Shown: positions 36,133 to 44,399 of the stretch, in pieces
How positions within the stretch are numbered: position 1 is the stretch's first letter
Layout of the letters: each line of letters starts with the position of its first letter
From: an uncultured Methylocystaceae bacterium
GTDB lineage: Bacteria > Pseudomonadota > Alphaproteobacteria > Rhizobiales > Beijerinckiaceae
Length of the DNA stretch: 64,000 nucleotides
Direction of reading: 5' to 3'
Assembly: GCA_903870245.1 (NCBI GenBank)
Contig: CAIQCB010000021.1
Coordinates: 38,088 to 102,087 of the forward strand
Notes under the pieces: generated by a model
The model's database searches: none
The model's input: only the letters and a program-made list of their open reading frames with translations
Told to the model about the DNA's origin: nothing
Made by a program: the position numbers and the translations under genes

Positions 36133-38907
36133 TCAATCGATCGAAAGTCCGACCGGTTGGACCCAGTTCGCCACATCCGGCGCGCCGCTCTCGCCGCCAG
36201 TGAACGCGCTGGCGAAGATTCCCGGGTCGCCCTTCTTGACCGCGCCCAGCTCATATTTGCCGGACATGTAAAAGGTGCGCTGCGGGAAGGGATGGAACAG
36301 CCAGTATTTCTGGTTATTCAGGTTGTCGACGCCGAAGTCGAAGGTGAGATGATCGTTGTATTTATAGGCTGTCTTGATGTCGACGACCGTGAAGCCGCTC
36401 CAGGCCTGATAGCCGAAGGCCCCGTAGTCGTTGTTGGAGAGCGTTGACCAGACTTTGCTCTGGTAACGCGCTGCAGCCGTGAACGCCCAGTGATCGTCCG
36501 GCCGCCATGTAGCAGTGACTGTGCCGCGCCATTCCGGCACATAAGGCATGTTTTTGCCTGCGATAGATAAGCACCAGGAATCATAGTTGCCGGATAGAAC
36601 GCTCGCCGGGCTGGCCGCCGTCGTTGTCGGCGCCCATGTCGGATCGGAGATGATCCGGGAATTCACCCATGTCGCGCTACCGGTCATTTCGAGGCCCTTC
36701 AGGAGAACATTGTTTTTTTGAAGGGCGACTTCGACGCCGCTGTTGCGGATGCGCTGAATATTAACGTTATTTGTGGTCGCAACGACAATAGGTCCGGGGT
36801 TCAGCGTGGTTTGTCCGACGATCGCGTCCCGAACTTCCTCGTCGAAGAGAGCGACCCTGGCGTTGCCTCCCTCATTGTCGAGCGTGCGCTGGAAGTTGAT
36901 TTCCTTGGTCAGGGCCACCTCCGGCCGGAGATAGGGATTCGGCTGAACATTGTTGCCCGAGGCGCTGTTGAAAGAAAGATTGTAAAGCTCCTTCACGGTT
37001 GGGAAACGGTTAGCCATGCCGATATTTCCATTGACCGTCCACTTTTCATCGATCTTGTATTCGAGCGATCCCTTCGGCGACCAGCGCGTGCTGTAGAGAT
37101 TAGGCTGATAGATTGGCATCATGAGCGCTGCGGCGTTTTTTGGCACGGAAGTGTAGCCAAACCCCGTCGCCGCCTGCGAGCCCGGTTGAGCCTGATTGAC
37201 GCCGTTCGACGCAATCCAGTTCTCGGCCCTCACGCCTGTGGTGAGCTTGAGGTCGGGAACGATGTCGAAAGCGTCCTGCATCCATAGCGCCTTGGTGCGT
37301 GTCGTGCCGCGCGAGATCGTTTGCGCAAATCCGTAGGCAGTCGACTCGCCGCCCGTCCAGCTATAGTTCCAGTAGGTCGGGTTGTTGAGATTGAACTGAT
37401 CGCCATGCAGGCCGAAACTTATGGCGTGGCCTTTGAACAAACCGCTATCCGGACGAAGAATTCCCTTTGCGTCAAGCAAGGTCCAGTAGGTGCCGCCGTT
37501 CTTGATGGTTCGTCCAAACTGCGTCCAGCCTCCATAGGGGAATGCGCCTGACCAGGGGCTGTTCTGGTTTGATTGAAGATAACTGAAGTTAGAGGCGGAG
37601 ATTTCGTAATCGAACAGGCCATTGGTGTTCGATTTGACGGCGCCGGAGTTGACCAGCATCTTTTCCTGCACGCGATAATAGCCGGCGCCGAATTGCTGTA
37701 GAGCGCTTGTGCCGAGCGCCGGCGCCGGCGTTGTGGCGAGCGTGCGTCCCGGCTTGCCGCCCCAATAAGGCCCACCGCCGTCAATCAGATAATTCTGGAT
37801 ATTCGAGGTGCCGTCGTTGGACCAGAACCCCAGCGTATAGGTGGCGCGCGTCGTAGCGTTGATGTCGTAGGCGCCCTTGAATTTGGCGTTGACCTGATCG
37901 TTGGCCAGATTGCCGGTCGCGCCGAGAACGGTCGTCGGTTGATTGAACTTGCCGGATTGATACCAGGCGCTCGGGTAGGGCTGAAAGACTCCTGATGTCG
38001 CGTTCGTGACGAATGTCAGTGGTTGTTGAGAGCCGCGTTGCCAGTTGCCGGAGACGTTCCAGCTGAAGTCGCCGACCTTGTCGCCCACGAAGATCTGGGT
38101 AACGTTGTTCACGAACAGGCGCTGCGTGCCGTATTGCGAGTAATCCTGATAACTGGTGATGTTCTTGGCGGTGACGGTCAATTTCTCCGGCATACGCGTC
38201 GTAATCTTCAATACGCCGCCCATTGAGTTGCCGGGATATTCAGCAGCGTAGGGACCATAAAGGAAGTCAACGCGCTCGATTTCCTCCGGCGCGACAAGAC
38301 CCCAGCGCGGCGCGCCCTGGGTGTTGTCGTTGGCGATCAGCGCCGTCAATAACAGGTCGTCAGCGTAGACAAGGCTGCGCGCCGAGGAGTTGACGCCCCA
38401 TGTGCGCGTTTGCAGCACCGCCTGGGTATCGCCATTGTTGCGTTTGCGCACGAACAGACTTGGCATGTATTTCACCGCGTCTTCCGTATCCACGATATTG
38501 ATCTTGGTCTCGATCTGTTTGCGCGTAATGCTGGCGACGGTGTTGGGCAGATGCCATTTCTCGACGAAAGCCGGCCGGCCATTCGGCAGCGTGGGCGACC
38601 AGATCGACTTCGGCGCATCGGGGTCGAGTTTCTCGCCCAGTGTTTCGCCGGGCGCCGATTGTGCGGTTTGGACGGAAGCCCCGCCGCCGCCCCCGCCAGG
38701 GGAGACCACACGGTTCGCGGTAGTTGCGCGGCCGGTTGCGGTTGGCTTGCCACGAGGCGCGCTGGCGATGCGCTGGGCTTTTTGCGATCCGCCAACATTA
38801 ATGGTCGGCAGGGACTGCTGGGCGCTGGCCGCTTGCGGCCACACTGCGAGACAAACGAGACTGATCGCGCCGGCGGAAACGCCGCGCAGGAGTTTTTTAC
38901 GATACAT
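36133..38907 (-). CDS. TonB-dependent outer-membrane receptor (924 aa) with an extended Gly/Ala-rich N-terminal linker
   Basis: Signal peptide ...WPQAASA. Plug-domain motifs (DTEDAVKYMPSLFVRKRNNGD, RVDFLYGPYAAEYPGNSMGGVLKITT), a long beta-barrel rich in aromatic/Gly/Asn, and a C-terminal aromatic-type end (...PVGLSID is atypical, penultimate region YMSGKYEL). Substrate unknown. Confidence 0.9.
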   Translation of the reverse strand: MYRKKLLRGVSAGAISLVCLAVWPQAASAQQSLPTINVGGSQKAQRIASAPRGKPTATGRATTANRVVSPGGGGGGASVQTAQSAPGETLGEKLDPDAPKSIWSPTLPNGRPAFVEKWHLPNTVASITRKQIETKINIVDTEDAVKYMPSLFVRKRNNGDTQAVLQTRTWGVNSSARSLVYADDLLLTALIANDNTQGAPRWGLVAPEEIERVDFLYGPYAAEYPGNSMGGVLKITTRMPEKLTVTAKNITSYQDYSQYGTQRLFVNNVTQIFVGDKVGDFSWNVSGNWQRGSQQPLTFVTNATSGVFQPYPSAWYQSGKFNQPTTVLGATGNLANDQVNAKFKGAYDINATTRATYTLGFWSNDGTSNIQNYLIDGGGPYWGGKPGRTLATTPAPALGTSALQQFGAGYYRVQEKMLVNSGAVKSNTNGLFDYEISASNFSYLQSNQNSPWSGAFPYGGWTQFGRTIKNGGTYWTLLDAKGILRPDSGLFKGHAISFGLHGDQFNLNNPTYWNYSWTGGESTAYGFAQTISRGTTRTKALWMQDAFDIVPDLKLTTGVRAENWIASNGVNQAQPGSQAATGFGYTSVPKNAAALMMPIYQPNLYSTRWSPKGSLEYKIDEKWTVNGNIGMANRFPTVKELYNLSFNSASGNNVQPNPYLRPEVALTKEINFQRTLDNEGGNARVALFDEEVRDAIVGQTTLNPGPIVVATTNNVNIQRIRNSGVEVALQKNNVLLKGLEMTGSATWVNSRIISDPTWAPTTTAASPASVLSGNYDSWCLSIAGKNMPYVPEWRGTVTATWRPDDHWAFTAAARYQSKVWSTLSNNDYGAFGYQAWSGFTVVDIKTAYKYNDHLTFDFGVDNLNNQKYWLFHPFPQRTFYMSGKYELGAVKKGDPGIFASAFTGGESGAPDVANWVQPVGLSID

Positions 38908-38982
38908 GTTCGTATTCCTTCATGCGCCGTCAGGCGCGACTGATCCATGCGCGGCATTGCGCGCGAATGTTTAGAGAGGGGA

Positions 38983-39414
38983 TCAGATGAAGGCGGGCGG
39001 TCCGCGCGCCGGCGCGCTGCGGTTGAGAGCGATCGCCGCAATCGTTTCGCGGGCGTGCTCGAAGGATAGCTTTTCGTATATCTCCACGATCCGCGCCTCT
39101 GGCGCCGCCCATCCGACGGGAGACGCATCGACGCTCGCCTCGCAGAATCCGCAGGAGGCGTGATCCTGTTGCGAGACGGGGAGTTCTTCTGAGGTCAGGT
39201 CTTTGGCGAATCCTCGTTTCGCGCCGTCCGGCCTTCTGGTCGTCAGGTTAGATCGAGGCTGACTCCAGCGTTGCGCCAGCAACGCTTGCGCCTTGCACCA
39301 CACGTCCATCGCCACCAACCCGCTACCGGTCGACGCCACCCCAGCCATGGGCGCGGCGACTTGCGTCAGCATCGTGACGCAAACGATCAGAGAGGCAAGT
39401 AATTTACGGCGCAT
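38983..39414 (-). CDS. Small exported CxxC protein, DUF2946-like, leader gene of the receptor operon
   Basis: Start chosen at MRRKLLASLIVCVTMLTQVAAPMAGVAS (signal/TM). Internal HASCGFCE motif and C-terminal ...APARGPPAFI. It lies 75 bp upstream of the receptor gene on the same strand. The family assignment is from memory of DUF2946 features and is not HMM-verified. Confidence 0.55.
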   Translation of the reverse strand: MRRKLLASLIVCVTMLTQVAAPMAGVASTGSGLVAMDVWCKAQALLAQRWSQPRSNLTTRRPDGAKRGFAKDLTSEELPVSQQDHASCGFCEASVDASPVGWAAPEARIVEIYEKLSFEHARETIAAIALNRSAPARGPPAFI

Positions 39415-39688
39415 GATCTCAGACGTGATTCGTTCTATGAAAACGCATGCAGAGTGTTCCCGGCGTCTCTGGCCGTAAAGCTCTCCATAGTTCGTAAGAC
39501 TTGAAAAACCCGTCATGCGTCTTTTCGGTCACACTGTGTAAGCCGCGCCTGCCCGTGGCCTTTCGCGCCGGCGACTGTTAACCATTTTTGCGAAATGACA
39601 GCCCATCATCTGACCGGCGCGGGCAGAATCGAAGCATTCCAATATGGCTTGCGTTGTCAGGCCGTAAAAATTCCGTTAAAGTTTATCT

Positions 39689-40093
39689 ATGTCACAAATT
39701 CGCGCCATTCTGTTCCGGTTACGTGCGGCGATTGTTCTCGTCGCCGTTACGGCGGTTTTTGGCGGCGCACTACTCACGACCCCGGCGGCGCGCGCGGCGT
39801 CCTTTTCCTCGGGCCTTTCCGCCCCCTGTGACCACCAACCGGCGAATCAAGCGGCGATAGACGGCAAGTCAGGCGCGCCGATTAAACGGGCGGGCTTTGC
39901 CGGTCATTGTCCGGATTGCTGCCTGTTCGGCGGCTTGGGCGTTCTGGCGCTTCAGGCCCGCGCGTCATTCTTGATCCAGCCGCCGGTCGAGACCGGCGGG
40001 AAGACCCTCTATTTTGTGAGTGGGGCCAATGCGCCGGAACTGCTGCTATCCGGGGCGGCAAACGGGGCCAGAGCGCCGCCCGGTGTGATCTAG
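39689..40093 (+). CDS. Small exported CxxC protein, DUF2946-like, leader gene of the exbBD-tonB operon
   Basis: 134 aa. N-terminal TM/signal (AAIVLVAVTAVFGGALL...ARAAS), GHCPDCCLFGG followed by a hydrophobic stretch, and C-terminal ...GARAPPGVI. It shares the CxxC plus R(A/G)PP-end pattern with 38983..39414. Confidence 0.6.
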   Translation: MSQIRAILFRLRAAIVLVAVTAVFGGALLTTPAARAASFSSGLSAPCDHQPANQAAIDGKSGAPIKRAGFAGHCPDCCLFGGLGVLALQARASFLIQPPVETGGKTLYFVSGANAPELLLSGAANGARAPPGVI

Positions 40094-40212
40094 GCGTCCG
40101 GGTCGGCTTTGGCGTCTCCCGGCAAAACCGGCATACGGCTTCATACAACAATCCACCAGTCACATCCTGCAGCGCCGTCACGCGCGCCTGCAATCAAAAA
40201 CGAGTTCATGTC

Positions 40213-40857
40213 ATGGATCACACGTCGCTTTCGCCTCTCGCCATGTTCATCAACGCCGGCCCGGTCGGCAAATTCGTCATGGCGCTTCTGCTTTTGGCCT
40301 CGGTCTGGACCTGGGTTTTGATCGTCGAGGGCGTCGTCGCCGTCAATCGTATCACCAAGGCGACGAGGTCGGCGCGCGCCGGCGGCCCCGTTGATGTTCT
40401 GGAGCCTGTGGCGGAGGCCGGTCGCGAAGCCTACGCCCTTGACCTTCCCGACGAGTCAAACGGCGAAAAACGCGAGCGTATCGCCGAATATATGAGCCGC
40501 ACGGCCCGCGAATTCCTGACGAAAGCCGAGGGCGGCCTGCCCAATCTCGCAGTCATTTCCTCGGTGGCCCCCTTCATCGGGCTCTTCGGCACGGTTTGGG
40601 GCATTATGACCAGCTTCGCCGGCATTGCCCAATCGCAGGACACCAGCCTCGCTGTCGTCGCGCCCGGCATCGCCGAAGCGCTCGCCGCCACGGCCTATGG
40701 CCTCGCCGCCGCTATTCCGGCGTCGATCGGCTATAACCGCATCGGCTCCTCCTTCGCCCGGCTTGGGCAGGAAGTTGCTCATTACATCGAGGACGAGGCC
40801 CTGCGTATGACCAGCGGCGCCGGCGCCAAGACCCGTTCGCAGAAGGAGGCCGCATAA
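40213..40857 (+). CDS. exbB: MotA/TolQ/ExbB proton-channel family protein
   Basis: Start at [12 protein letters not shown]. Three TM segments, with [19 protein letters not shown] and [22 protein letters not shown] signature motifs. Confidence 0.9.
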
Positions 40858-41315
40858 TGGCGCTTCCCGCACGCTTCAAAAAGAACAACGATCTCTACCA
40901 GCCGCTCGCCGACATCAACGTGACGCCGCTTGTCGACGTCATGCTGGTGTTGCTGATCATCTTTATGGTCACGGCGCCATTGCTGGCGAAGGGCGTCAAG
41001 GTCAACCTGCCGCAGGCCAGCGCTGCCGCGCCGATCAACCAGAAGGATCCGATCGTCGTCACCGTTGGCAAGGACGGCAAGGTTTCGCTTGGCGCCGACG
41101 AAGTGTCGCCGGAATCCCTGATCGATGGCATTCACGCCATGATGGGCGGCGACAACGCCCGGGTCGTTCATGTGCGCGGCGACACCGAAGCCGCCTATGG
41201 CGATGTGGTGGCGATGATGGACCGGCTCGCCACCAACGGCATCACCCATATCGCCATCATGACCAACTCCCGCAGTAAAACAGGCGGGCTGAAAGCAGGA
41301 GGAGGAGCGAAATGA
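40857..41315 (+). CDS. exbD: ExbD/TolR family biopolymer transport protein
   Basis: 152 aa with a TAATG overlap on exbB. Motif [23 protein letters not shown]. Confidence 0.9.
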
Positions 41316-42034
41316 CCGACTTCGCCGCGAATCCAGCCCTGTCCCGCGGCGTGACGCAACGACAGACCGAGCCTCCCGCCGGACCGCCGCCCATCGTCTC
41401 GGGGCGGCTGCGGGCGATCACCTATGCGCTCGTCGTCCTCGCGCATGTCGCCGTATTCGCCGCCTTCCTCACATGGGCAAAGCCCGATGTGATTTCGCTC
41501 GACTCTCTGACCATGGACCTTGTCCAGGAGGGGGATTTCTTCGAGGCCGAGGAGGTCGCCGCCGCCGAGGATACGCCGCCGCCGGAAGTCGTTGAGGAGC
41601 CGGAGCTGGCGCTGCCGCCGCCGGAAGTCATGTCTCCCGACGCGCCGCAATTGCCCTCCACACAAAAGAAAGAGCAGGTCAAGAAAAAGGAGGAGCGCAA
41701 GGAGGTCAAGAACGCACAGCAGGCTCGCGAGGCTCAGGCCAAACGGCATGCTGGCGCGCCCGATGGACGTTCGCAGGGCTCCGGGGTTTCGCAATCGGCC
41801 TGTCTGGCGCATGTCGCAGCCGATCTGCGCCGGCACACGCCGGGCTCGACAAATCTCGGCGCCGGTCGCGCGACCGTTTCGTTCCATGTGAACCCGGGCG
41901 GCGGACTCTCTGGCGTTTCGGCTTCGGGATCGACGCCGGCGCACGCCGCTTTGGCGCGCCGCATCGTGTCCTCGTCGCGCGGCACCGCCGGTTGCGGATC
42001 CGCCTTTGTGAGCCAGAGCTTCTCGTTTCACTGA
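41312..42034 (+). CDS. tonB: TonB-like energy transducer (TM anchor, Pro/Glu/Lys-rich spacer, divergent C-terminal domain)
   Basis: 240 aa with an ATGA overlap on exbD. TM segment [18 protein letters not shown], spacer [19 protein letters not shown]...[13 protein letters not shown], and C-terminal [16 protein letters not shown]...QSFSFH. Confidence 0.75.
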
Positions 42035-42106
42035 ATGCGCGCGCCGGCGATTGTGTTTATCCCCGGCGCGTTCTCCTCTCATGTCTTCAATCATGGAGAA
42101 GAGCGA

Positions 42107-42589
42107 ATGGCGCAGCCTTTGCGACAGGCGTTATGCTTTTTCTTTTTGGCCTTCACCGGCGTCGCTGTCGCCGAAAGTCGAGCCCCGACGTCTGCCAGCG
42201 CGACTCCTCCCGCTGCGCCGGTCATTTCAGAGAGCAAGTTTCTGGGCGCTCTCTACAGCGAAATCGAGAAACACACGCCAGCGGAGAACACGCTGGGCGA
42301 TGGTGAGGTGACGGCGAGTTTTCACGTTGACGCGGCTGGCCGGATCGACAAGGTGACGATAGAAAAAACTTCCAGCCCGGCTCACGCCAACGCCGTGAAG
42401 CAAATTCTTGGCGCAGTCGTCGCGCCGCCGCCGCCCGGCGGCTCGATGGACGTGGGGCAGACGTTCAAATTTCACAAGCCCGAGTCAGAGGAGTCCGTCG
42501 CCCCGTCAGCGCCGGCGCCTTCGATCGCAACATCGCCGGCCGCACCAGCCATGGCGCCAAGGGCTGCGCCACCCGCGCCGGCGCGATAA
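42107..42589 (+). CDS. Secreted stand-alone TonB-C-terminal-like domain protein with a Pro/Ala-rich tail
   Basis: Start chosen at MAQPLRQALCFFFLAFTGVAVA (signal peptide). The core EIEKHTPAENTLGDGEVTASFHVDAAGRIDKVTIEKTSSPAHANAVKQIL...GQTFKFH aligns by eye with the C-terminal domain of the preceding TonB-like protein. Confidence 0.55.
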   Translation: MAQPLRQALCFFFLAFTGVAVAESRAPTSASATPPAAPVISESKFLGALYSEIEKHTPAENTLGDGEVTASFHVDAAGRIDKVTIEKTSSPAHANAVKQILGAVVAPPPPGGSMDVGQTFKFHKPESEESVAPSAPAPSIATSPAAPAMAPRAAPPAPAR

Positions 42590-42624
42590 GTTCCGACACT
42601 ATCCTCCAGAGGGGAGCCGACGCC

Positions 42625-43911
42625 GTGAAACGCATCAGACGATCAGGAAAATCGCTTGTCGCCGCCCTGTTGATGTCGGTAACCGCCGCGTCCGCAGAGG
42701 AACATGCGGGGCCGACTTCGGGCAATGTTGAAAGCGGCCCAAAGCCTGCGATGAAACACACGGCTCCGGCCTGTTCCGACGCCCGGCCAGACTGCGCCAT
42801 GACGGTGTTTCCGGCTTTTGATCGAAAAGGGCGACTTTGGGTCGCTTTTTCTGTCGGCAAGACAGTCTACGCCGCCGCCTCCACAAACGGGGGCAAGAAC
42901 TTTGCGGCGCCGGTCGTCGTCGCGACCGTCGGCGAGACTGGCGTGATCGACTCGCATGGCGATGCGCGTCCGAAGATTGTCGCGATGAATGACGGCGGGC
43001 TGCTGGTCGCCTACACCACGCGCCCTGACAAGCAGATGATCGGCACGATCTTCACCGCACGGTCTACTGATGGCGGCAGGAGTTTCTCGACGCCGCAGGC
43101 GATGCTCGCGGAAGGCGGCCAGCGTTTCGACGCATGGGCGATTTCGCCCAAAGGTCGCATTTACGCAGGGTGGCTCGACAAGACCCATGCGCTGAAAGCC
43201 AAGGCCGAAGGCCGCGACTTCGCCGGCAGCGGCGTCGCATTCGGCTGGTCGGACGATGGCGGCGCGACATTCAATGGTAAGTCAATTCTGATGGACCACG
43301 CCTGCGAGTGCTGCAAAATGTCGGCGGCGCTGGATCGCGACGGTCTGCCCGTCTTTGCGTGGCGTCAGGTTTTCGAGGACGGCGTTCGCGATCATTATGC
43401 GGCGAAGCTGTCCGCCGACGGATCATCGCTCTCGGGCGGTCGCGTCAGCGATGACAACTGGGCGATCAACTCTTGCCCGCATCAGGGTCCGGCGCTCGCG
43501 ATTGATGGGGCCGGCGTCTGGCATGTCGCCTGGTTTACGAAGGGGAAGACCCGTCAGGGTTTATTCTACGCCGCGAGTCGCGATGGCGGCAAAAATTTTT
43601 CCCCGCCGGAGAAGATCGGCGACGAGGCTCACGCGCCCGCCTTTGCGGCCTTGCTCGCCGTAAAGGATCGACTGTATCGGGTCTGGAAGGAGTTTGATGG
43701 CAACGCCACCAGCATTCCGTTCCAGATGTCGCGCGATGGCGGTAAAACCTGGAGCGCGCCGCATGTGCTCGCGACCGCCGCAGACGCTTCCGACAATCCG
43801 CAGCTCGTCGCCAACAACAAGGGCGCAGGCTATCTCTCATGGGTCTCCCATAAGGAGGGATATCGGCTGATCCCTCTCCCTCGCGATGAAAAGAGCGCGT
43901 CAATAAGATGA
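42625..43911 (+). CDS. Exported BNR/Asp-box repeat beta-propeller (sialidase-fold) protein with conserved-looking Cys/His motifs
   Basis: 428 aa, GTG start with an AGAGGGGAG RBS, and a signal peptide. Four Asp-box motifs (STDGGRSF, SDDGGATF, SRDGGKNF, SRDGGKTW). Cys motifs APACSDARPDC, HACECCK and NSCPHQGP. Confidence 0.8.
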   Translation: MKRIRRSGKSLVAALLMSVTAASAEEHAGPTSGNVESGPKPAMKHTAPACSDARPDCAMTVFPAFDRKGRLWVAFSVGKTVYAAASTNGGKNFAAPVVVATVGETGVIDSHGDARPKIVAMNDGGLLVAYTTRPDKQMIGTIFTARSTDGGRSFSTPQAMLAEGGQRFDAWAISPKGRIYAGWLDKTHALKAKAEGRDFAGSGVAFGWSDDGGATFNGKSILMDHACECCKMSAALDRDGLPVFAWRQVFEDGVRDHYAAKLSADGSSLSGGRVSDDNWAINSCPHQGPALAIDGAGVWHVAWFTKGKTRQGLFYAASRDGGKNFSPPEKIGDEAHAPAFAALLAVKDRLYRVWKEFDGNATSIPFQMSRDGGKTWSAPHVLATAADASDNPQLVANNKGAGYLSWVSHKEGYRLIPLPRDEKSASIR

Positions 43912-44399
43912 AGGCTTTAACTGCATATACCGGCGCTGTGCTCGCCGCTGGTCTGCTGTTTTCCTCCGCCGCTCTGGCGCTGGACTTCAAGCCCTACGGA
44001 CGCGGCGATTACGAGACGCTCCTCAAGGCCCGCGCCGGGCGGCCGTTGATCGTGCATTTCTGGTCGGTGATCTGTCCGGCCTGTGTCGCGGAATTGCCGC
44101 AATGGGCGAAGCTGGCCGCGGCGCGCAAAGACGTCGATGTCATTTTCGTCGACACCGACGATGCGGAGGAGCGCGACCGCGCCGCAGGGCGTCTGGAGAA
44201 GGCGGGATTGGCCAGCGCTTCCCATTACGGCTTCGCCGACAATTTCGTCGAGAAGCTTTATTTCGAGGTTGATCGCAACTGGCGCGGCGAACTGCCGTTC
44301 ACCGTGCTGGTGACCCGGGATGGCGCCCGGACGACTCTCGCCGGTGGTCTTGACGATCCCGATCTGGTCAATTGGTTGAGCAGGAATGTCGGCAAATAG
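43908..44399 (+). CDS. TlpA/ResA-like periplasmic thioredoxin-fold thiol:disulfide oxidoreductase
   Basis: 163 aa with an ATGA overlap on the preceding gene and a signal peptide. Motif HFWSVICPACVAELPQW (CxxC). Confidence 0.8.
   Translation: MKALTAYTGAVLAAGLLFSSAALALDFKPYGRGDYETLLKARAGRPLIVHFWSVICPACVAELPQWAKLAAARKDVDVIFVDTDDAEERDRAAGRLEKAGLASASHYGFADNFVEKLYFEVDRNWRGELPFTVLVTRDGARTTLAGGLDDPDLVNWLSRNVGK

Follow-up and report, generated by a model that had tools for sequence, protein, structure and literature searches.

What do two small open reading frames (ORFs) do at the head of two divergent operons that together encode a TonB-dependent uptake system? The question arises from a 64,000-nucleotide (nt) stretch of DNA from an uncultured Methylocystaceae bacterium (contig CAIQCB010000021.1, positions 38,088 to 102,087 of the forward strand), which we call the window and number from its first letter. 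On the minus strand ORF A precedes the gene for a TonB-dependent receptor, and on the plus strand ORF B precedes exbB, exbD, TonB-like genes and the genes for a BNR protein and a redoxin (Table 1). The original prediction described each ORF as the first cistron of its operon, with an N-terminal hydrophobic signal, a Cys motif and an R(G/A)PP end. All of these features are borne out: the Arg-x-Pro-Pro motif lies three residues from the stop codon in both ORFs, and the next gene begins 75 nt after ORF A and 119 nt after ORF B. Based on our computational analysis, we propose, with somewhat more confidence than doubt, that both ORFs are regulatory leaders of the DUF2946 (CruR/CutF) class, composed of an export signal, a Cys metal site and an R(G/A)PP arrest motif. 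By analogy with characterised leaders, the two small genes probably act as metal-sensing ribosome-stalling switches. Direct products of the computation, described below, are the motifs and the distances between them, the synteny, and the RNA structure and its covariation.

How alike are the two ORFs, and are they genes at all? The mechanical ORF A covers 38983-39516 and 177 amino acids (aa); all homologues and the public gene calls for an identical contig place the start at MRRKLL (39414). From there a basic n-region leads into a hydrophobic stretch at residues 3-26 by hydropathy, as in an export signal. The distance from CGFC to RGPP is 45 residues, and only three residues (AFI) follow RGPP. 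In distant homologues the CXXC reads CALC or CRHC, and RAPP replaces RGPP in more distant A-type homologues. Some distant homologues (L009:5499-5873 and L010-L014, minus strand) have a second arrest-type motif, RAPP or RGPP, in the interior of the protein, about 19 residues ahead of the terminal RGPP (as in ...APRAPPAQ...TRGPPSHA); ORF A of the window has the terminal motif alone. ORF B, which diverges from ORF A across 274 nt, encodes a signal peptide with an ARA-AS site, a semi-conserved PCDH, HCPDCC at residues 73-78 and the end ANGARAPP-GVI-stop, with 50 residues between CPDCC and RAPP. Of the 599 segments of 60 aa or longer between stop codons in the six reading frames of the window, exactly two, ORFs A and B, end in R[AG]PP followed by 0-8 residues, and both have a CxxC 40-55 residues upstream of that motif. 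Because the two are unique among the 599 segments, their shared features are not a by-product of GC-rich DNA. GC-rich genomes do contain many spurious ORFs (81 of at least 40 aa in 8 kb here), and RAPP codons can consist of G and C only; the probability that ORFs A and B are such chance frames is nevertheless negligible, since only these 2 of 599 segments end in this way and frame, motifs and length are kept in 179 B-type clusters and in >40 loci with the same synteny. This conservation refutes the chance reading.

To which known regulators would such leaders correspond? CruR (Bp2923, a DUF2946 protein) heads the cruR-bfrG(crtA)-bp2921 operon of Bordetella pertussis and controls it post-transcriptionally in response to copper through a CXXC and a RAPP motif (PMC9426467, Roy et al. 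2022), in agreement with the original prediction. Copper sensing by the CXXC relieves arrest, which allows Rho-dependent termination; the 45-residue spacing is conserved in the CruR family and functionally important, an export signal is present in >95% of members, and Table S1 of the paper includes two Methylocystis DUF2946 proteins (PMC9426467). CutF, a DUF2946 member that is the leader of cutFOG in Rhodobacter capsulatus, works through copper-induced stalling that melts a stem-loop hiding the cutO ribosome-binding site (PMC9973294; bioRxiv 2025.02.05.636593). RAPP and RGPP are versatile, EF-P-resistant arrest cores that act with Pro codons in the P and A sites; RGPP is the strongest reported, and CruR arrests in the PURE system (PMC12992588). 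Like CruR, the two window ORFs specify exported proteins of about 140 aa with a CXXC and an R-x-P-P three residues before the stop. ORF A has the identical 45-residue spacing, is the first cistron before a TonB-dependent receptor gene and has C>G-skewed RNA near its 3' end, and the logic expected for it is that of CruR, namely uptake turned off by metal. Differences are also evident: ORF A carries RGPP where CruR has RAPP, its intergenic region is 75 nt and not 162 nt, it is followed by a covarying helix that sequesters the Shine-Dalgarno (SD) sequence whereas CruR acts via Rho-dependent termination, the PepSY_TM gene is absent from its operon, and two leaders stand back to back. ORF B departs from CruR in its CPDCC motif, its 50-residue spacing and the variable tails of its relatives, and it precedes exbB-exbD-tonB, not a receptor gene.

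Profile searches uphold DUF2946 membership in part. Both proteins match PF11162 essentially end to end, ORF A with 19.4 bits (E 1.8e-3, profile positions 3-117 of 117) and ORF B with 22.8 bits (E 1.6e-4, positions 1-117 of 117), against a gathering score of 23.7, and many homologues pass it. Precomputed PF11162 matches exist for 8 of 15 close ORF A homologues and for the distant A-type homologue in L042; 29 of 36 diverse ORF B relatives match at E<0.01 (best 1.7e-7), and several relatives from cultured Methylocystis are named 'DUF2946 family protein' by NCBI/UniRef. Neither ORF fits the definition of the CutF family (CxxxC and a C-terminal PPP repeat); both have CxxC and R(G/A)PP instead. The B-type family comprises 147 proteins, 146 of which have both motifs at a spacing of 48-52 (mode 50); 145 of these 146 have RAPP, 128 have CxxCC, and the tails after RAPP are 1 to 7 residues long. 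Outside the window, A-type spacing is 44-45 at nine loci and 48 at one more, with a tail of three residues (four in one). Measured against the DUF2946 norm of about 45 residues, within one or two, ORF A conforms, and ORF B, at 50, does not. As the spacing of ORF B is conserved yet offset by about +5 from the norm, we regard ORF B as a distinct subfamily. It is small and restricted to one lineage: a profile search of 1.84 billion representative proteins found only 39 ORF B-type clusters. The two ORFs had been called paralogous, a description that comparison does not confirm, with a mutual BLASTP E of 1.3 and a profile-profile (hhalign) probability of 30% over 18 columns around the CxxC. On these grounds close paralogy was rejected, and A and B are treated as two diverged subfamilies of one superfamily, A with RGPP/45 and B with CPDCC/RAPP/50. 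The notion of one device duplicated at the locus therefore needs dividing: both ORFs resemble leaders of the CruR/CutF class, but they belong to distinct subfamilies (RGPP/45 versus RAPP/50) that differ in the constraint on the tail and in the design of the downstream intergenic region.

How might arrest within ORF A be communicated to the receptor gene? A conserved RNA element of four helices (P1-P4) stretches from the RGPP codons to the receptor start codon. In P1 the codons of the Ala-Phe-Ile tail are predicted to form an anti-SD strand that pairs with the receptor SD; P2 involves the ORF A stop codon, and P3 and P4 are local hairpins. The RNA between ORF A and the receptor gene folds with a z of -2.2 in the window. 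When 21 distinct loci are folded independently as single sequences, every fold pairs the SD core with the ORF A tail. Between clades P1 occurs as CCUUCAU/AUGAAGG, CCUUCCC/GGGAAGG and CCUUCCCUGG/CCAGGGAAGG; P2 likewise has compensatory variants in other clades, GUCUGA/UCAGAC in one form and, in another, a UAA stop opposite GUUU. A covariance model of the element (R1), searched with inclusion at E<=0.02 because E<=1 admitted spurious GC-rich matches, has a single match in the window (97.9 bits), and Rfam contains no match for the element. In a structural alignment of 17 loci, itself fitted to the covariance model, 94.2% of cells are paired compared with 85.5% in shuffles (0/500), 9 pairs are changed on both sides (a count reached by 1/500 shuffles), and the covariation score is 0.219 versus 0.094 in shuffles (0/500); controls with slid partners are 24-45% paired. 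When all 19 ORF A intergenic regions were aligned with MAFFT, misaligned SD columns hid P1 from RNAalifold; a subset alignment and the covariance model recovered it. Cognate tail:SD duplexes are stabler than permuted ones, both over all loci (P=0.00035, n=19) and with one representative per clade (P=0.011). Moreover, the tail peptides vary (AFI, AFA, SHA, SFV, SLV, SRV, SRA, SSLA) while CCUUC is constant, and all 11 distinct sequences with Ser-type tails use CCU as the second Pro codon, a codon with a share of 9.7% among the Pro codons of window genes. Judged by these patterns, the ORF A tail is conserved as RNA, not as peptide.

The position of P1 gives this structure its potential as a switch. 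When a ribosome is arrested at RGPP, the 5' strand of P1 is inside it, 7-13 nt 3' of the first P-site nucleotide. When nt 1-21 are blocked in silico, the unpaired probability of the SD core rises from 0.03 to 0.53 on average and from 0.11 to 0.76 in the window; coarse accessibility over -15..+3 is unchanged by blocking for ORF A, and the change appears at the SD core itself. Since the P1 5' strand falls inside the arrested ribosome and the SD core opens on blocking, arrest at RGPP would unmask the receptor SD. This CutF/SecM-type read-out is the best-supported model for ORF A; ORF A with its receptor gene would be a further member of the known CruR/CutF-type arrangement, here with a well-supported predicted SD-unmasking structure. 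An SD-sequestering structure that overlaps the footprint of the arrested ribosome was found for ORF A and the receptor gene and not for ORF B and exbB in the clade of the window. The earlier proposal that both operons are controlled at the level of translation is thus favoured by structure and covariation for ORF A and the receptor, and finds no coupling structure behind ORF B in this clade.

We envisage the following sequence of events at ORF A. A translating ribosome would stall when the two Pro codons occupy its P and A sites, and would then cover the next ~13-15 nt. The covered stretch would be the CCUUCAU strand of the helix formed against the receptor SD, so that the SD would be unmasked and the receptor translated. 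Once the arrest is released, the ribosome would terminate, the helix would re-form and receptor translation would stop. The trigger for release would most likely be copper at the CxxC of the nascent chain, as in CruR, and the logic would be that of CruR-controlled uptake: the leader would arrest and the receptor be expressed when metal is absent, and release would shut expression off when metal is present. Rho-dependent polarity may contribute to the shut-off; the 3' end of ORF A has a C>G skew (39035-38946; C-G +12 to +14, 99th percentile of the window) that may leave room for such an added Rho component. In this model we infer the arrest, the identity of the metal, with copper dependence of both leaders, the direction of the response and the effect on expression.

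The proposed read-out has relatives among characterised systems. With CutF it shares an mRNA structure that shields a ribosome-binding site and is melted by a stalled ribosome, which is the read-out predicted for ORF A and the receptor. CutF differs in having CxxxC and PPP, in controlling a copper-detoxifying oxidase and in being stalled by copper; its stem-loop is a local intergenic hairpin, whereas the anti-SD strand of ORF A is made of the leader's own last codons, and arrest of the RGPP/RAPP type is reported to be EF-P-resistant. SecM, MifM, VemP and ApdA/ApdP/ApcA likewise combine an RAPP-like C-terminal arrest core with an N-terminal localisation signal (PMC12992588, PMC10987492), and there too a stalled ribosome opens a structure that hides a downstream initiation region. 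The SecM group senses protein export and targets sec/yidC, in contrast to the Cys site at fixed distance and the TonB-system targets found here. In terms of gene arrangement the crtA loci are also similar: cruR comes first before a copper-responsive receptor gene, and some of these loci have dedicated exbBD/tonB genes (PMC12914433). They differ in that no second leader before exbBD-tonB is described for them, and CrtA orthologues are mostly beta- and gammaproteobacterial and followed by PepSY_TM genes.

Is the arrangement in the window kept elsewhere? The original prediction made its case depend on conservation in related genomes, and both ORFs are indeed kept in position in more than 40 related loci. 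The order receptor, ORF A and, divergently, ORF B-exbB-exbD-TonB-like-BNR-redoxin occurs in >40 loci of Methylocystis and related Alphaproteobacteria; the module recurs in 10 genome loci and 25 metagenome loci, and it is also present in contigs of four distant ORF B relatives, which are other chromosomal neighbourhoods, and in the complete genome of Methylocystis sp. SC2 (HE956757.1, 1,401,787-1,414,215). ORF A lies directly 5' of the receptor gene in every locus that has a receptor. Wherever the downstream DNA suffices, exbB follows the ORF B relatives, except in L035, in which a TonB-like gene comes directly after ORF B and tblastn detects no exbB; in L033 exbB was unmatched by tblastn, and an exbB-type start was found on the same short contig. 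Two Methylocystis metagenome-assembled genomes (MAGs) carry only part of the module. In one (L008:2860-4968) the receptor gene and ORF A are gone and pntB abuts ORF B, with ORF B and exbB retained; in the other (L006:4222-6001) there is no receptor gene, and a truncated ORF A is kept together with the RNA element (L006:5213-5317, 77.9 bits). In both, the ORF B-exbB operon persists without a partner receptor.

The pattern of divergence bears on what kind of product is under selection. The leaders are 29-63% identical in loci where ExbB is 64-97% identical, while CxxC(C), R(A/G)PP and their spacing are unchanged. Selection on motifs, spacing and operon position alone is what a cis-acting sensor peptide predicts, as opposed to a folded protein, and leaders that diverge rapidly around fixed motifs and spacing fit such a peptide. 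We give little credence to the alternative that the ORFs encode copper-binding proteins that are stable and exported, for instance chaperones or subunits accessory to the receptor or to ExbBD-TonB, and that they are ordinary members of their operons with no regulatory role in cis. It draws on the first proposal for DUF2946, a copper homeostasis protein suggested by cofitness with a copper receptor, on a length of 134-143 aa, which is long for a leader peptide, and on the signal peptides and conserved Cys and His of both ORFs. Such proteins would not be expected to diverge outside the motifs much faster than the products of neighbouring genes. Nor would they be expected to preserve an EF-P-resistant arrest motif at a distance of 1-7 residues from the stop, as all A-type members and 146 of 147 B-type members do, when such motifs are otherwise purged from proteomes (PMC12992588). 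Retention of the ORF A tail at the RNA level (CCUUC), with the peptide free to vary, also argues against stable proteins, as do CruR and CutF, which are unstable and act in cis.

What, then, distinguishes ORF B? Its sigma-70-like promoter ends immediately upstream of the coding sequence, and 16 distinct loci from several clades (window 39654-39691, L001, L003, L006, L008-L014, L016, L031, L032, L041 and L042) share the invariant -35 hexamer, a -10 hexamer resembling TAAGAT, the 17 nt between the two and the 6 nt that separate the promoter from the ATG. Because this conserved promoter ends 6 nt before the ATG and no SD is present, the ORF B mRNA is probably leaderless. Two further blocks upstream of ORF B are invariant, TCCAA and GCGTTGTCA; the former, which precedes the -35 hexamer by about 15 nt, might bind a regulator. 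These blocks exceed what a promoter needs and speak for essentially transcriptional control, in which a metal-responsive regulator would act at the promoter region common to the two divergent operons, and little would depend on the ORFs or the RNA structure. Most known copper systems are controlled in this manner (PMC9426467). As an explanation of the locus it is nonetheless very improbable: it leaves the arrest motifs, their fixed spacing and the covarying anti-SD:SD helix unexplained, and the conserved module contains no regulator gene. Transcriptional and leader control can, moreover, coexist.

Under the leader model, ORF B would gate exbB-exbD-tonB-BNR-redoxin from its probably leaderless mRNA in the same general way as ORF A, with another read-out. 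Two candidates are considered, Rho loading on the C-rich, G-poor tract of the intergenic region and a weak long-range helix. The tract has a C-G skew of +11 to +14, in the 99th percentile of the window, and a read-out of the Rho/polarity type is ranked first for ORF B of the window, with low confidence. As regards RNA structure, RNAalifold finds no global conserved fold of the ORF B-exbB region across clades; applied to individual clades, it suggests pairing of the RAPP codons with a GC segment that lies 22-45 nt before exbB. An 8-nt complementarity between the ORF B tail (GUGUGAUC, 40082-40090) and the start of exbB (GAUCACAC, 40213-40223) exists in the window only and not in relatives; it was discarded as probably due to chance. 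A different solution appears in another clade (L017:4397-4592, L026, L032, L041 and L042), in which ORF B has a six-residue, ARLSLS-like tail. There the tail codons CUCUCCCUUUCC pair with a strong exbB SD, AAGGAAGAG, located ~150 nt downstream, and L042 has compensatory variants, so that SD masking is predicted to occur within the ORF B family as well, in this clade. Its anti-SD lies largely beyond the footprint of a RAPP-arrested ribosome, and for this reason the logic may differ from that of ORF A.

Is copper the signal? CxxC or CxxCC with an adjacent His is a classic Cu(I) site, and the methanotroph host has a high demand for copper. The CxxC mediates the copper response in CruR, and AhpC/TSA-type redoxin genes are already known from copper-linked cruR operons (PMC9426467). 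These points make it unlikely that the ORFs are arrest-peptide leaders responding to something else, be it Ni, Co, Zn, Fe, a lanthanide, the periplasmic thiol-disulfide state or the Sec-translocation load, which would release the arrest by altering the folding of, or the pulling force on, the nascent chain. In favour of this explanation, CutF stalling has been proposed to be relieved by disulfide formation, a TlpA-like thiol-disulfide oxidoreductase closes the operon behind ORF B, thioredoxin-domain proteins are enriched downstream of RAPP/RGPP upstream ORFs (uORFs) (PMC12992588), and the top family matches of the receptor are of haem type, not copper type. The closest solved structure to the receptor is PhuR (E only 2e-14), and the likeness of the receptor to haem-type receptors is weak.

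Several observations weigh against metal-sensing arrest leaders as the explanation of the locus, and against copper as their signal. The receptor is weakly haem-receptor-like and bears no likeness to known copper receptors. Both window proteins fall under the Pfam gathering threshold for PF11162, and the 50-residue spacing of ORF B exceeds the range reported for DUF2946, 45 +/- 2; the copper response of CruR was impaired when its spacing was altered by +5. With regard to ORF A, the alignment behind the covariation counts was fitted to the covariance model, and the 7-bp tail:SD duplex of the window, taken alone, is not significantly better than duplexes with shuffled tails. With regard to ORF B, the intergenic fold before exbB is no better than shuffles in the window (z -0.34), blocking the arrest site leaves the accessibility of the exbB initiation region flat (0.51 to 0.52, predicted open either way), and the partners of the RAPP codons are inconsistent in single-sequence folds, with long-range pairing in just 16 of 33. 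Finally, the methanotroph literature consulted, copper transcriptomes included, yielded no expression, ribosome-profiling or metal data on the module.

How new is a leader of this kind before energising genes? The genes listed as cruR contexts in the available text of the CruR paper are those for the receptor, PepSY_TM, ScoC, PCuAC, YcnI, CopC, MbnPH and AhpC_TSA; ExbB and ExbD do not occur in that context text, and the supplements consulted have no ExbB, ExbD, MotA or TonB entries (PMC9426467). Compared with this published list, the operon behind ORF B has its leader in the first position and a closing AhpC/TSA-like redoxin that is listed, with exbB and exbD unlisted in the text. The supplements of the CutF paper have no ExbB/ExbD/TonB entries (PMC9973294), and among the genes tabulated genome-wide downstream of RAPP/RGPP uORFs across 52,895 genomes, no product is named ExbB, ExbD, MotA or 'biopolymer'. 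The sole related remark, in the portion of a JBC 2026 paper available to us, is that ExbBD/TonB genes are present in some crtA loci, and a second leader goes unmentioned there (PMC12914433). The suggestion that a leader ORF in front of exbBD-tonB is a new context thus stands for the published lists examined: ORF B with exbBD-tonB is a new context occupied by a distinct subfamily (50-residue spacing, CPDCC, probable leaderless mRNA), and a leader switch before energising genes has not previously been described.

What would this mean for the host? The type of methane monooxygenase used by a methanotroph is set by copper supply, and to our knowledge the copper-uptake routes of methanotrophs besides methanobactin are poorly known. 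We tentatively picture a self-contained import module of Methylocystis and relatives, made up of a receptor, a private ExbB-ExbD-TonB set, a BNR protein and a TlpA-like redoxin, each half of which would be gated by its own metal-sensing arrest peptide through a different read-out: SD unmasking by the leader's own tail codons on one side, and a leaderless uORF with an undescribed Rho- or structure-based mechanism on the other. Should this picture be right, it would be the first TonB energising machinery under nascent-chain metal sensing, and it could mark a methanobactin-independent route of copper uptake in methanotrophs. A receptor and a dedicated TonB system under putative nascent-peptide control are a concrete candidate for copper uptake that can be tested in a cultured strain, SC2. 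The locus also presents a natural side-by-side pair of DUF2946 subfamilies, RGPP/45 and RAPP/50, with apparently different read-outs. An anti-SD helix made from the last codons of a leader would connect uptake that metal switches off, as in CruR, with unmasking of a ribosome-binding site, as in CutF. In addition, ORF B offers the arrest-peptide field a probable leaderless arrest-peptide uORF and would extend the targets of RAPP-type uORFs to exbB-exbD-tonB.

Table 1. Positions of the two leaders, their motifs and RNA features, and the genes of both operons in the window
Feature	Position	Strand	Remarks
ORF A, DUF2946-type leader, 143 aa	38983..39414	-	homologues 62-76% identical with same start; PF11162 match full length
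CGFC, putative metal-binding motif of ORF A, residues 88-91	39142..39153	-	context HASCGFCE; C88, F90 and C91 invariant (alignment A2)
RGPP codons of ORF A, residues 137-140, predicted ribosome-arrest site	38995..39006	-	AFI, then stop
Conserved four-helix RNA element (P1-P4)	38902..39006	-	RGPP codons to receptor start codon; RNAalifold, covariance model R1
P1 5' strand, anti-SD CCUUCAU	38987..38993	-	from Ala-Phe-Ile tail codons; predicted pairing
P1 3' strand, AUGAAGG	38917..38923	-	contains receptor SD (ATG at 38907); predicted pairing
P2 5' strand, CUGAUCC	38980..38986	-	includes ORF A stop UGA; pairs with GGAUCAG at 38940-38946
TonB-dependent receptor gene, 924 aa	36133..38907	-	second cistron of ORF A operon; Plug E 3e-13, barrel E 6e-37
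Sigma-70-like promoter of ORF B	39654..39682	+	TTGTCA, 17 nt, TAAAGT; ends 6 nt before ATG; no SD
ORF B, DUF2946-type leader, 134 aa	39689..40093	+	PF11162 match; first cistron before exbB
CPDCC, putative metal-binding motif of ORF B, residues 74-78	39908..39922	+	C74, C77 and C78 invariant in 36 diverse members
RAPP codons of ORF B, residues 128-131, predicted ribosome-arrest site	40070..40081	+	three residues (GVI) before stop
ORF B-exbB intergenic region, 119 nt	40094..40212	+	114-186 nt across loci
G-poor A/C-rich tract	40139-40168	+	1 G and 12 C in 30 nt; conserved 40-59 nt before exbB ATG
GC hairpin before exbB	40167-40192	+	predicted
Weak exbB SD, ACGAGU	40200-40205	+	
exbB	40213-40857	+	PF01618, E 6e-31; 119 nt after ORF B
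exbD	40857-41315	+	PF02472, E 2e-29
Two TonB-like genes	41312-42034, 42035-42589	+	weak: NF008082 E 1e-5; TonB_C/TIGR01352 just under cutoff
BNR/Asp-box repeat protein gene, 428 aa	42625-43911	+	in operon behind ORF B
TlpA/ResA-like CxxC redoxin gene, 163 aa	43908-44399	+	last gene of operon behind ORF B; AhpC/TSA-like

The remaining genes of the module add some detail. The receptor has no close characterised relative; its assignment as an OprC-type receptor was rejected at a TIGR01778 score of 26.6 bits against a cutoff of 472, and no equivalog family fits. In its N-terminal ~110 residues a long Gly/Ala/Pro-rich linker runs from the signal peptide to the plug, which begins at about residue 120. 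In the operon behind ORF B (40213..44399, plus strand) neighbouring start and stop codons overlap or abut. ExbB and ExbD score equally on the TolQ/TolR and ExbB/ExbD models, in each case under the cutoff. The label 'tonB' for the TonB-like genes leans on weak matches. There are two such genes in the window and three in other clades (L009-L015 and L041-L045 compared); the C-terminal parts of the two proteins are alike (~33% identity over 84 aa), and the first has no recognisable TonB_C Pfam match. The BNR protein and the redoxin are the invariant closing genes of the operon in all loci.

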